A stretch of 64,000 nucleotides of DNA from a virus: positions 1 through 64,000 of IMG/VR virus record IMGVR_UViG_2900881136_000004; one strand, written 5' to 3'. This document shows, in pieces, positions 21,001 through 30,000 of this stretch. The position numbers were made by a program. How positions within the stretch are numbered: position 1 is the first letter of the stretch; every line of letters begins with the position of its first letter.

Positions 21001-24000
21001 GCAGCAGCATGGTGGTGCTGGCGGGCGCGGCACGTACCGCGAGCGAGGCGGCACCGGCAAGCGCCGCGAGTGCGAGAGCAAGGGCGGTGACACGGCGCGC
21101 GCGGCCGGCGCGCGACACCCCGCGTACGCGATGCGCGCGCAGCGCACGGCGGTCAATTGAACCCGTGCTCACGGCGCGATGAACCCCGTCTTGTCGCATG
21201 CGAGCGTCGTGCCGGCCTGCATGCACGATGCAAGCAGCTTGCCGGCGGCCGAGTACGCGCGAAAAACCCAGCCCATCGCCGGCGCGGGGCGGCGTTCCAT
21301 CATCAGGAAACCGAAGCTGTTGTTGTGCGACAGCTTGTCGATGACCGCGCCGGATGCGGGCGTCAGCGCGGCCGGGAACGGGTCGGGCAACGCGACGTCG
21401 ACGTTGTCGCCGCCGTTGCCCGACACGATCGTCGCCGGATGGCCGGACGCGAAATTGATCGCCTGGAAGTCGTGCACGTGGCCGTGCAGCGCGACGTGCA
21501 CGCCGGGCGGGTAGTACGCCTGCGCGTTGAGGCTCGACATCACCGATTGCAGCGCGAGGTTGCCCGGCGCGGGCGTGCTGCCCGCGATCGGCGTGAACGC
21601 GAGGATCGGGTGATGGTTCGTGAAGATCGTCGTCGACATACCCGGCTTGCTCGCGAGCGCGGCCACCGTCTCGAACTGCTTCTGGTAGATCTGGAACTGC
21701 GTGTCGGTCGTCTTGAGCGCCGCGCGGCCGACCTTCGCGGTATCGAATACGATCACCTGCGAGCCGGTGCCGAGCGGCACCGCATAGGGCTCCGAATAGT
21801 TCGCGTTGCCGTCGTTCGCGGCATCGTTGCACGAGCGCGCATCCGAATACGGGCGCGGATCGAGAAAGCGGAACCAGCCCTGGCCCGCGCGCGCGCATTC
21901 CTCATGGTTGCCGCGCACGACGACCCACGGCGCTTTCGCGAGCAGCGGCGCGGCGGGCTCGAACAGATCCGCGCGCCACGCGTCCCAGCCGTAGCCCCAC
22001 GGGCTGTTCCTGCAGCCGGCGATGTCGGGCGGGCACGCGTTCTCGCGGTAGTGATAGTCGCCGACGTGCAGCACGAGATCCGGATTCAGCTTCGCGATGC
22101 TCGCGGCGATCGTCGCGAACGGCCAGACGGTCGCGTCGCTGCACGCCTGGAACGCGTTGTCCGCCTTCTTCATCCGGCAGCCGGTGTCGGCGACGATCGC
22201 GACGCGCTGCGGCTCGGCCTTCGGCAGCGGCAACGCGCGCGAGGCGACACTCACGTCCTTGGCGTTCGCGGGCAGCGTGGTTTCGCAGACGGACACGGGG
22301 AAGCTCGACGGCTTCGAATCGGCGGGGTCGCTCGCGGTCGGGCGTTGCGCGGCGGTGCCGGCGGCGACGCGCAGCGTCATCCGCGATAGCTTGCCGTCGA
22401 TGACGAGCTGTGGGCACAGCGGATCGCCGGCCGACGCCGGGATGAAATTCGTGATCACGCGGGCGATCGCCTGGTTCGCGTCGCCGATCTCGACCCACGC
22501 GGCCTGCACGTTGATCGTGGCGCTCGCCGGGTCGGCGGGCATATCGATGTGTTTCACGGTTGCGAGCGCTGCGATCGCCGCAAGCGAAGCGAAGCACGCG
22601 GACACGGCGCGCAGGGAGAGTCGTCGCATGGATGTCACTGTCGAAAAGCCATCAATACACTAGCGGCGACCAGTCGGCCGTGCTCGCATTGTCACGGGCG
22701 TCGCTCGAACCGCGCGCCTCGTCACGCTGGCATACCTTCAGCAAGATATCGCGCACATATCACCGAAAGATTTCTGTTGCGTTTCGATTGCATTTGACCC
22801 TAGCCCACAAAACTGTCCCACTTGGAAGTGGAAAATTTCGGCATGACGTTGTCATCGAGACCAGGAGGTCATGCCGTGAAGAAGAGCAAGTTCACCGAAG
22901 AACAGATCGCCTATGCGTTGAAGCAGGCCGAGCTGGGCACGCCGGTCGCGGAGGTCTGCCGCAAGATGGGAATCAGCGACGCGACGTTTTACATATATGG
23001 ACTGCTCCCAATAGCAAACGGAGGTTGACGGACACGGAAGTCGATTGCGTACATATATCCGGCGTCAGGGCATCGCCCAGCGCCCAACTGGAATTCCGCA
23101 CGTGCAGGCCTCAACAACTGGAAGACCTCAAGGGCCGTTATAAAAATCAGGTTCCCTGCTCGCCCGGATCGACCGGTGTGCCACTCGTCAATTCGTCAAC
23201 GCATCGTTGGTGAAGTTGCTACCCTGCTTTCTGATACGACTGGCCGGTTGCGAGCATCGACCAGATTACGCGAGCCATCTTGTTCGCGATCGCAACAATG
23301 GCTCGATTAGCACCTCGTCTGGCTTTCAACGCGAGCGCCCAGGCGTGTTTCTTGTCATGTTTTGTTGGTGCGGTTCGGAGTACCGCGCGAGCACCGTGTA
23401 TGAGCAAGGTGCGTAGATGCCGGTCGCCTCGCTTGCTGATGCCGAGTAGGTGCGTTCGGTCTCCGCTGGAACTCTGACGGGGAACAAGACCGAGCCAGGC
23501 AGCAAAGTGTCGGCCGTTCCGGAAGTCTTTTGGGTCAGAAACTGCAGCAACGATGGCGGTAGCCGTCTTGGGGCCACCCCCTTCAATCTGCGCGATGCGC
23601 TGACAGGTTTCACTGGCCTTGAACACCAAATCGATACGTCTGTCGAAGTCCCTTCGCAGCCGAGTGAAGGCGACGATGGTTGTAAAAATCGACTAGATAA
23701 TCAGTGATGTCTTGCTCTGCATGGCGGTGATCGACGTACAACTGGTCGCCGATCCATTCATTTTTGAGGCTTCGGAAGAAGCGCTCGACCACCGCGTTGT
23801 CCCAACAGTTGCCGCGCCGACTCATGCTCTGGATCGTGCCACGGGCGCGCAGCTCGGCGAGAAAGCGCGTGCTCGTGTATTGGCAGCCCTGATCCGAATG
23901 GAACATCAGGCCTGGTGGCGGACGACGATGATCGTAAGCCCGTCTTAATGCCTTTAGTGCCAAGTCGGTGTCCGCGTGCTGACTAAACGCCCACGCGCCC

Positions 24001-27000: not shown

Positions 27001-30000
27001 TTTCGACAATGATCTACTCGCCGCGTGCGCTCGGCCGAACGGGCGTCTCGCTCGAGCTTTCGGGATAATCCTCGCCTATGGCACCACAATCGGAGGCGTA
27101 TGGTTTCTCTGTGCGTCGTACCGGGCTGGCGCCCTGTAATTGCGCTCGCAGAGGCTGGACTCGCAGATCCTCTCCATCTCTTTCGATTTGACAAGTTACC
27201 TCGGCTCCGCGCTCGCCAATCGAGCAATCCAAGCAGCCTCAAGTGCGCGAACAATCGAAACAAATCGCTCGGCCTCATCTGGCGTTGGTCGGCCCTTAAC
27301 AGAATGTGCAGCGCGATTGCGAATCTCGCGAAGTTCTCTCAAGAGCTTTATCTCGTCGTCCGGCACGAGGCACCGAGATTCGAGCTCTCGTAGTACGTCT
27401 TTGCTAATGCTCCCACTGACGATCCGTGCGTCTCTCCCGAGAATTTGAGCCATCTTAAAAAGGTCACCCCCCACCGACGTGAGTTCCTTCCATGCCTCCA
27501 TGATCACGCCAGTCGGGTTCGCATTGAGCGCAATCGGGTCAGGCGTGAATTCGACGCCCCCTTCGCCGATAAAAGTAAGCTCCAATTGCCTTGCTAGATG
27601 TTCTGCGTTTTGCAACGGCGCTTCGAATTTTCCCGATATTCCCCCGGGGAGATTGAACTCCGTCAAATTGCCGAGCAACTCGCGGAATCGGTCGCTGAAC
27701 TTGAACACGAGGATAAGGACGGCCAGCGGCCACGCTGTGGCCTCGATCACCTTGGATACAAATGTCAGCCAGTCCATGTCGCACCCCGTCATCTGATTCT
27801 GTTTGCTGGAAATCCTAGCACGACGCCCCTCCCCATAGCCACGCACATTCCGGCGCTTCGGACGCGTGGCTTTTTGTGACCAACGCAAGCCACACCGCAG
27901 TTCCCCGCCCGCCGCGCGCGGGATTTCCTCTCGGATAAGCGCGGCCTTTCGGCGGGGCGGCCCGTATGCGCGCCCCGCCATTTTTTACCGGAGATACCAA
28001 TCAAAACCGCTTCGAAGCTCATCGTCGCGGCCGTGCTGTTTCTCGTGCTGCTGTCGATCGTCACCCCGTGGCTGATGAATCAGGACAGCAGCATCACCCT
28101 GCTCGCCGTGCCGTTCGTGTGGTTGGCGTATGCCGCCGCCTTTGTGAAATTCATCCCCCCTCATTTCAAGGAGACCAAGTGAAACGCCTGTTTCTGATTC
28201 TGATCCTCGCGCCGACGATGTTCCTCGCGGCCGGCTGCGATAACGTCCCGGCCGGCTACGTCGGTGTGAAGGTGCAACGCTACGGCGACGACCGCGGCGT
28301 CAACGTCGAAGTGAAGGGGCCCGGGCGCTACTTCAACGGGCCCAACGTCGACATGTTCATCTTCCCGACGTTCACGCAGTCCTACGTGTGGGACAAAGCT
28401 GGCAAGTCCGACGAGTCGTTCACGTTCCAGACGGTGGAGGGCCTGTCGGTCAACACCGACATCGGCGTCAGCTACGCGATCCCGCGTGAGAACGCGCCCA
28501 AGGTGTTCCAGAAGTATCGGCGCGGAGTAGATGAGATCACGGGGGTCTACCTGCGCGCGATCGTGCGCGACGCCCTGAATCTCGCCGGCGCGTCGATGGC
28601 GGTCGAGGACGTCTACGGCAGGGGCAAGGCGGCACTACAGCAGCGCGTCGAGGACGAGGTAAAGGCGAACGCCGCGAAGGTCGGAATCAGTGTCGAGAAG
28701 GTCTATTTCGTGAATCAGATGCGCCTCCCCGAGCAGGTCATGAACTCGATCAACGGGAAGATCGCAGCGACGCAGATCGCGCAGCAGAAGGAGAACGAAC
28801 TGCGTGCAGCCGAGGCAGACGCGGCAAAGCAAGTCGCGATCGCCAAGGGCGAGGCCGAAGCGCTCGAGGTGAAAGCGAAAGCACTACGCGAGAACAGCCA
28901 GATCCTGCAACAGATGGCGATCGAGAAATGGGACGGCAAGCTCCCCCAGTACGCGCGCCGCGTGGTGGGCTGGGCGTTTAGTCAGCACGCGGACACCGAC
29001 TTGGCACTAAAGGCATTAAGACGGGCTTACGATCATCGTCGTCCGCCACCAGGCCTGATGTTCCATTCGGATCAGAGCTGCCAATACACGAGCACGCGCT
29101 TTCTCGCCGAGCTGCGCGCCCGTGGCACGATCCAGAGCATGAGTCGGCGCGGCAACTGTTGGGACAACGCGGTGGTCGAGCGCTTCTTCCGAAGCCTCAA
29201 AAATGAATGGATCGGCGACCAGTTGTACGTCGATCACCGCCATGCAGAGCAAGACATCACTGATTATCTAGTCGATTTTTACAACCATCGTCGCCTTCAC
29301 TCGGCTGCGAAGGGACTGCCGCCAGCGCGTTTCGAAGCGCTCGCAGCCTATCCCGGAGCAGTGTCCAAAGTTGCTTGACCACTTCACTTACCCCCATTCG
29401 ATGGGTAGATTGTGTCGGGACGGGGCGGAACGGACAAGAGGATTGACACCCCCAAAACGCCGCCAGATAAGGCGCCTCGGGGGATCTACGAGAATCGAGC
29501 GGAACCGCTCGGAAGGTGTTCTGGCGGAGAGAGGGGGATTCGAACCCCCTCATGCGCTAGACGTGGCGCGGGTTTCCGGCCGATGGCATACCAAAAACGG
29601 ACTAGCCCGCGCCGCCCTTCAATCCCGGCCGTAGCGCCGCCCGCGCCCTTCCCCCTTGCCAACATCCGCGCCACTGCCGCCGGCCGCCCCTGGGCCGATT
29701 CTCGCCCATCCCTGGGCCTTCTCCCTGGTAGACGTTCCCGCTCGAAACCGGCCGCGCCGCGCGTCGACGAATACGACCATTGGTCGTATCCTAGCGCACA
29801 TATCGATGCGACCATTGGTCGTAATGTGAGGGCTCCGGCGTTCGGCATCCTGCCAGAACGCGGAAACCGGAGCAAAGATCATGAGCGGCATGAACGGATG
29901 GAAGAACATGGAAACTTTCGCGGTCGTCAACTTCATAGGCACTGACCCGGAAGACGTGAGCTATTGGACGGCGAGAACGCAAAAGGCGATTGCGCGCGCC

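Follow-up and report, generated by a model that had tools for sequence, protein, structure and literature searches.

In a 64,000-nucleotide (nt) stretch of the virus record IMGVR_UViG_2900881136_000004 (positions 1 to 64,000; hereafter the window), a prophage remnant of about 5 kb lies between two inverted and truncated copies of the insertion sequence (IS) ISBps2, and the same segment is found in the reverse orientation in other Burkholderia pseudomallei genomes. The explanation that we favor, at a probability of roughly 85%, is that this remnant is inverted between the two ISBps2 remnants by general homologous recombination, after two IS insertions and subsequent deletions had produced the arrangement. 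The window represents B. pseudomallei chromosome 2 and is 100% identical to CP038806.1 over the stretch compared (21758-33000). Positions without a prefix refer to the window, and loci and contigs used for comparison carry L numbers.

Two truncated ISBps2 copies as inverted arms

The arms of the inverted repeat are located at 23647-23993 and 28971-29317, are 347 nt long each and are separated by a spacer of 4977 nt. When they were compared base by base, 346 of the 347 positions matched, the sole mismatch being the C at 23888 against the complement of 29076, which exchanges glycine for serine in the transposase frame, and the identity drops sharply right outside both borders. An earlier note on this DNA, made from the sequence alone, had described an identical inverted repeat of 348 bp; the repeat itself is real, but it is one nucleotide shorter, its ends lie 1-2 nt from those given, and its arms are not fully identical. 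The alignment that was named there as a possible refutation, one without identity past an embedded 237-bp open reading frame (ORF), was run, and near-identity extended over the whole 347 nt. No other inverted repeat of the 64-kb window is longer than 41 nt, and identity reaches just 70-73% in the next-longest ones, so that a chance origin of the 347-nt repeat is excluded. The features that make up the invertible unit are as follows.

23647..23993, minus strand: left arm, an ISBps2 orfB remnant (IS nt 1164 back to 818) truncated at both ends, assigned by mapping on the intact reference IS (matched at nt 818-1162) and by its rve/rve_3 frame
23994..28948, no strand assigned: invertible inner segment of about 5 kb, a prophage remnant, assigned by ORFs that match phage protein families and by the gene order in intact prophages
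23983..24222, minus strand: HNH endonuclease remnant with about 76 native codons of 118 (phrog_144, profile positions 17-95 of 175)
24640-24924, minus strand: BrnA antitoxin (PF14384)
24908-25177, minus strand: BrnT toxin (PF04365)
28179..29378, plus strand: fusion ORF of 399 aa, consisting of residues 1-258 of an SPFH/Band_7 lipoprotein (phrog_200) and 141 residues of ISBps2 OrfB
28949..29386, plus strand: right ISBps2 copy (IS nt 796-1233) without its 5' part, assigned by a 438-nt match to the intact IS and including the right arm

The assignment of the arms to an IS3-family OrfB, which had already been made in the earlier note, is confirmed by several comparisons. The Pfam domains rve, rve_3 and rve_2 were matched in ORFs of both arms, and full-length proteins in the same 90% cluster as the arm ORFs bear the NCBI name 'IS3-like element ISBps2 family transposase'. 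As well, the right copy shares 93.6-95% nucleotide identity with an annotated IS3-family element on the B. latens plasmid pAU2934 (L001), and this match runs past both borders of the right arm. The pAU2934 element, 1233 bp in length, starts with TG and ends with CA, contains an A-run as its frameshift site and is bordered by a duplicated AGG target, while an intact copy in another B. pseudomallei chromosome (L008:2178-3410), to which the arms are 99% identical, is flanked by a 3-bp target duplication, AAG, and contains orfA (2243-2545, 100 aa) and orfB (2542-3402, 286 aa) overlapping in the -1 frame. The two 78-aa ORFs, one per arm, to which the earlier note had pointed do exist and translate identically, but they are antisense to the transposase frame, which is open on the minus strand for the left arm and the plus strand for the right arm.

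IS3-family elements are copy-out-paste-in DDE elements with an orfA-orfB frameshift. Like them, the arms encode the C-terminal rve/rve_3 part of OrfB, and the right copy keeps a canonical ...CA end, its right inverted repeat (IRR) being intact with the terminus ...GACCACTTCA at 29386. The left inverted repeat (IRL) is missing from both window copies, and the two-ORF -1 overlap of the intact relatives is present in neither; indeed, no 5' part of ISBps2 (IRL, orfA or the N-terminus of orfB) was found anywhere in the window. Since IRL, orfA and the N-terminal part of OrfB are lacking, the two copies cannot transpose or encode a transposase and provide passive homology only, and without orfA or a 5' part they are remnants instead of functional members of the family. 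The arms are best described as two non-functional remnants of ISBps2, a 1233-bp IS3-family element, with their right ends facing outward. With the right copy spanning IS nt 796-1233 and its left counterpart nt 818-1164, the 347-nt repeat corresponds to the overlap of two differently truncated 3' remnants.

This overlap bears on another suggestion of the earlier note, namely that the 5-kb segment had inserted into a single original IS, splitting it, and that rearrangement followed. Nothing speaks for this suggestion except that IS fragments flank the segment on either side. Both fragments hold the same interval (nt 818-1164) and derive from the 3' part of the element, so they are not two halves of one IS; moreover, the window holds no 5' part, the inner joints show microhomology to truncated phage genes instead of insertion ends, and each copy has an IRR of its own in L008. 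The suggestion was therefore rejected, and its probability is close to nil.

No further copy of the arm IS was found in the window, and the two other IS3-type pieces, an OrfA stub at 22876-23028 and an rve fragment at 17520-18233, come from different members of the IS3 family. The latter, a 237-aa rve-type OrfB fragment on the minus strand, is 25-33% identical to the arm IS (tblastx) and has a 41-nt stretch in common with the arms at 73% identity. The OrfA stub lies in the left flank, together with the gene fragment that adjoins the left arm.

22876..23028, plus strand: OrfA stub (HTH_Tnp_1) of a different IS3-family element, without similarity to the arm IS and interrupted by IS110
23219..23646, minus strand: C-terminal fragment of an IS110-family transposase (IS110'), adjoining the left arm and matching PF02371 only; the intact gene in L008 encodes 339 aa

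The history of this flank can be read from L008, in which the left ISBps2 copy, in contrast to that of the window, reaches its IRR (nt 1233). The other IS3-type element follows 6 bp further on and is interrupted by the intact 339-aa IS110 gene, beyond which lies a 275-aa OrfB that matches the OrfA stub (full arrangement, L008:11601-14092). Relative to L008, the window carries a deletion of about 1.8 kb, from ISBps2 nt 1164 to the middle of IS110, at a CT microhomology. The outer end of the left arm in the window is therefore the product of a later deletion, because the L008 copy runs to its IRR.

The same locus helps to weigh a segmental inverted duplication, in which the first arm would have served as the template for the second, for instance through template switching or fold-back repair where a single ISBps2 was broken. 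Such an event would agree with the inner truncation points, which nearly coincide (nt 796 and nt 818), and with a left copy whose IS interval, in the window, falls wholly within that of the right copy. However, both L008 copies end exactly at IRR with unrelated sequence outside, whereas a duplication would carry flanking DNA, and the inner boundaries are 22 nt apart with different microhomologies. As each L008 copy ends at its own complete IRR and has unrelated outer flanks, two separate insertions are indicated, and the duplication is considered unlikely.

Both orientations of the segment in B. pseudomallei genomes

The possibility, raised in the earlier note, that the segment between the arms could invert by homologous recombination is supported by complete reciprocal isomers in other B. 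pseudomallei genomes, in which the orientation switches inside the arms. Inversion predicts that the SPFH fusion ORF, which many B. pseudomallei records carry, would become a protein of 391 aa ending in ...KGLRQTYRFGVQGQ in place of the standard 399 aa ending in ...KGLPPARFEALAAYPGAVSKVA, and the 391-aa protein was found in the 90% cluster of the fusion protein, along with a 322-aa variant with the same tail as the 391-aa product. Contigs L015-L017 lead from the inner segment through an arm into the reverse complement of window 23646-22265. In L020, both flipped junctions are contained in one 54-kb contig, where the DNA between the arms runs in reverse and the overlap of the alignments falls within the arms, while the outer flanks remain colinear with those of L007, with SSF and tRNA-Ser on one side and the OrfA stub and a metallophosphoesterase on the other. 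The segment is reversed in L020-L023, and the flipped state is also present in the chromosome records CP000125.1 (whose protein is linked to strain 1710b) and CM000833.1. The standard arrangement is present in the complete chromosomes CP038806.1, CP009484.1, CP008783.1 and CP012518.1. The junctions of the two states can be written as follows.

Standard state: SPFH-arm-tRNA flank and HNH-arm-IS110'
Flipped state: SPFH-arm-IS110' and HNH-arm-tRNA flank

When the junction classes were tabulated, all four flank combinations were seen, with breakpoints in the arms. Two structural variants of the inner segment, with the window-like 27150-27780 either present or replaced, occur in both orientations each, and the flanking haplotypes differ among flipped isolates. 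The presence of both inner variants in both orientations implies at least two flips, or one flip and allelic replacement. Judged from rough counts, both states seem to be common in the species; a 98-aa stub linked to IS110' is found on at least 1000 contigs and a 106-aa stub linked to IRR on 548, although these numbers are not clean counts of orientation. Each assembly shows one orientation only.

Mis-joined contigs could in principle create either the repeat or the flipped isomers, and several flipped cases are indeed short-read drafts with identical arms. However, several complete chromosomes contain the standard form, the window's two arms are distinguished by one single-nucleotide polymorphism (SNP), and flipped isolates share inner-segment haplotypes in a non-random manner. 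Because CP000125.1 and CM000833.1 hold the flipped form, that state is not an artefact of draft assembly, and an assembly origin of the whole pattern is extremely unlikely. As a separate observation on drafts, contig L004 (GCA_015320025.1), whose end corresponds to window 28706, and three similar contigs stop within the SPFH gene, not at a repeat border.

The prophage remnant, its joints and a proposed history

The inner segment is the remainder of a prophage: nearly all of its ORFs match phage protein families, four of them being small phage ORFs without a known function. Where prophages of B. pseudomallei and of CP000085.1 are intact (L006, L012 and L013), terminase, portal and capsid genes come after the BrnT-BrnA pair, and an HNH gene lies between BrnA and terminase in L006; CP000085.1 is presumably chromosome II of B. 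thailandensis E264. At the other end, an intact SPFH gene of 270 aa is found in L014, in a phage early operon that leads to an AlpA-type excisionase. The earlier statement that each arm truncates a different gene agrees with these native forms: the HNH remnant has lost the catalytic part of a 118-aa protein, and the SPFH gene keeps 258 of 270 codons, the last 12 being lost, with the homology between L014 and the window stopping at 28952. Two further observations concern these building blocks. L014 (6383-13960) also holds a second and only partial SPFH module, 96% identical, to which the left arm and IS110' are joined (window 23514 to window 28486), so that these elements have been rearranged there in yet another way. 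The BrnT protein of the window recurs unchanged in the contig collection, where 1679 indexed blocks contain it. Rfam matches near 24165-24383 were below threshold and fell on a terminator-like hairpin, and the fold of the region examined for tRNA and Rfam matches was not significant (z = -0.67).

Three-way alignments resolved both inner joints (a slash marks the border in each sequence). At the SPFH joint, native ...CCCCAGTAC/ATGG passes into IS ...CTGTAC/GCGC via a 4-nt microhomology, GTAC. At the HNH joint, aligned with the native HNH gene of L006, ...GCGCGTG/ACTG passes into IS ...GGCTG/GGCG via 2 nt, TG, at IS nt 818. Both joints thus have the short microhomology that is typical of illegitimate-recombination deletions.

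According to the history proposed here, which is the most economical one, a prophage would have integrated at tRNA-Ser and been flanked near both of its ends by two separate ISBps2 insertions with their left ends inward. Two deletions, each extending from inside one IS into the prophage, would then have removed the integrase side and the terminase-to-lysis side, and the remaining inverted homology of 347-416 nt would have served as a substrate for general (RecA-type) recombination. Subsequently, the segment would have flipped at least twice in the species, or once with allelic replacement, and the only effect of each flip would be to exchange short C-terminal tails between two fusion ORFs (399 versus 391 aa, and 98/159 versus 106/167 aa).

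General homologous recombination is the best explanation because no recombinase is present, the repeats are decayed coding sequence, and the exchange occurs within the repeats. No recombinase domain was found in the ORFs of the inner segment or in their immediate neighbors in the window. The effect of the flip is confined to the final 12-20 residues of the two fusion ORFs, no promoter or switched gene was seen, and the inversion is probably neutral. A programmed switch, in which a site-specific recombinase would flip the segment and thereby change the expression of the SPFH lipoprotein, BrnTA or a neighbor, would accord with the abundance of both orientations, with flips that appear recurrent, and with a segment that adjoins a prophage-integration hotspot and carries a toxin-antitoxin pair. 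It is nevertheless very unlikely, since the window has no invertase or tyrosine recombinase gene within or adjoining the segment, the arms derive from decayed transposase genes instead of being short recombination sites, only the tails mentioned above change, and individual assemblies are uniform in orientation.

Several points weigh against inversion by general recombination after independent insertions and deletions. The flipped strains examined show no difference between their two arms, which leaves no SNP by which a crossover point could be mapped, and SNPs in the arms of different strains are sporadic and form no clear pattern of exchange. The dependence of flipping on RecA is something that we infer, and one flip with allelic replacement could stand in for two flips because B. 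pseudomallei recombines freely. Furthermore, the two 5' truncation points are so close to each other (IS nt 796 and 818) that the chance is about 3-4% if they arose as independent random deletions. Nt 818 (window 23993 and 28971) is also the only internal site of the IS, on either strand, that matches the TG-N18-GGAC of both IS ends, although this was noticed post hoc. Likewise, the outer boundary at nt 1164/1165 recurs in an unrelated junction of L018 and L019 (L018:11140-13236, L019:6924-9020), where the right copy is cut at nt 1165 and about 180 bp separate it from the gene of a tyrosine integrase (582 aa; DUF6538 and Phage_integrase), with an intact tRNA-Ser after that.

These boundary coincidences may mean that the history was not purely one of random deletion. 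As a speculation, the near-coincident inner borders could have arisen by aberrant resolution of intermediates stalled at the edge of homology, when one copy was truncated and the other still intact. It is also conceivable, though with quite a low probability, that the flip is not neutral and that the IS remnants, next to a prophage-integration hotspot, have been co-opted as a recurrent switch acting on the tail or the expression context of the SPFH lipoprotein and BrnTA, or, as a separate matter, that nt 818 is a cryptic IS end and the HNH-side copy a transposed mini-ISBps2 of 416 bp. A scan of the genome collection with a 30-nt pattern from IS nt 818 yielded one unrelated contig of 482 bp only.

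The tRNA-Ser site and known invertible systems

To the right of the invertible unit, the window continues with a short tRNA fragment and a second prophage.

29522..29549, minus strand: 3' end fragment of tRNA-Ser(GGA), 28 nt comprising the T-arm, acceptor and CCA; at this place L007, L011 and L020 have an intact tRNA
29550..64000, minus strand: prophage with its lysis and tail genes nearest the junction, including a Glyco_hydro_108 endolysin, Phage-tail_3 and a tape measure protein

The fragment lies 135 bp past the right end of the IS. L007 and L011, which have an intact tRNA-Ser(GGA) and no prophage, are colinear with the window up to 29549, and an intact tRNA is also present in L018-L020; no intact tRNA was detected in the window by ARAGORN. 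The 28-nt fragment is the displaced 3' end of this tRNA, the attachment-site half that remained when the prophage on its right integrated. That prophage spans at least 34 kb and extends out of the window, with the intact tRNA at its far end; it forms the context of the invertible unit and is not part of it. L005, L008 and L010 carry other islands at the tRNA-Ser site. An Rfam match to RF04351, 'Plastid-psbl-rps4', at 29525-29605 (plus strand) was discarded, as it reached 39.9 bits against a gathering score of 68 and represents just the complement of tRNA-Ser.

Three further observations come from elsewhere in the window. Five direct repeats of 46 nt with a 23-nt sub-spacing (...ATGGTCCGACC...), iteron- or operator-like, occur at 63370-63821 in the prophage near the right end of the window. 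Three tandem copies with a start-to-start distance of 63 bp lie at 32396-32545, within a 130-aa phage ORF (32279-32671) beside tail-fibre-like genes, and encode the motif ...ATLDNFTA.... Finally, the GC content is 46-53% at 18500-19750 compared with 60-74% around it, and this region includes a glycerophosphodiester phosphodiesterase (GDPD) gene on the minus strand (18659-19591).

Chromosomal inversions by homologous recombination between inverted IS copies are well known and are prominent for IS407A in B. mallei. The locus described here resembles them in that the segment occurs in both orientations, the switch points fall in the repeats and the junctions are exactly as predicted. Unlike in those cases, the repeats are short dead remnants (347-416 nt), and the segment is only 5 kb long and lies in a decayed prophage. 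The Hin/Gin/Cin, Fim and shufflon systems share with it a segment between inverted repeats that exists in two orientations in the population; however, no dedicated recombinase, short cognate sites, or evident promoter or alternative gene-end switch is seen here. Similar to the composite transposons Tn5 and Tn10, two inverted copies of one IS surround a unique segment, but both copies are devoid of inner ends and transposase, and the unit therefore cannot move as a transposon. Its behavior is that of the long-known class of inversions between inverted IS copies, ordinary and with no sign of function.

The tRNA-Ser hotspot of chromosome 2 corresponds to GI13 and GI13.1-13.4 of Tuanyok et al. 2008 (PMC2612704). 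The locus agrees with the GI13 hotspot of that paper in carrying different islands or prophages in different strains and a short direct repeat of the tRNA 3' end, whereas the invertible remnant is a conserved old layer that adjoins the variable island; a search of the paper gave no mention of inversion. The features of a tRNA-linked island site are found here as well, with a tRNA-Ser 3' end adjoining, a direct repeat of the tRNA end and content that varies among strains. No paper that describes an inversion or orientation polymorphism at GI13, or that names ISBps2, was found in the literature searched. The locus is a published island hotspot, and its ORFs are already annotated in public records, where the 399-aa ORF bears the name 'bacteriophage/transposase fusion protein'.

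For B. pseudomallei genomics, a segment with two orientations at GI13 can be mistaken for different islands and breaks short-read assemblies, and one decayed structure yields alternative fusion-protein annotations of 399, 391, 381, 167, 159, 106 and 98 aa. It also offers a clean natural example of repeated inversion sustained by no more than about 350 nt of dead IS sequence. No new mechanism or function is indicated, and the value of the finding lies mainly in the annotation of GI13 and in the assembly of this region in B. pseudomallei genomes.

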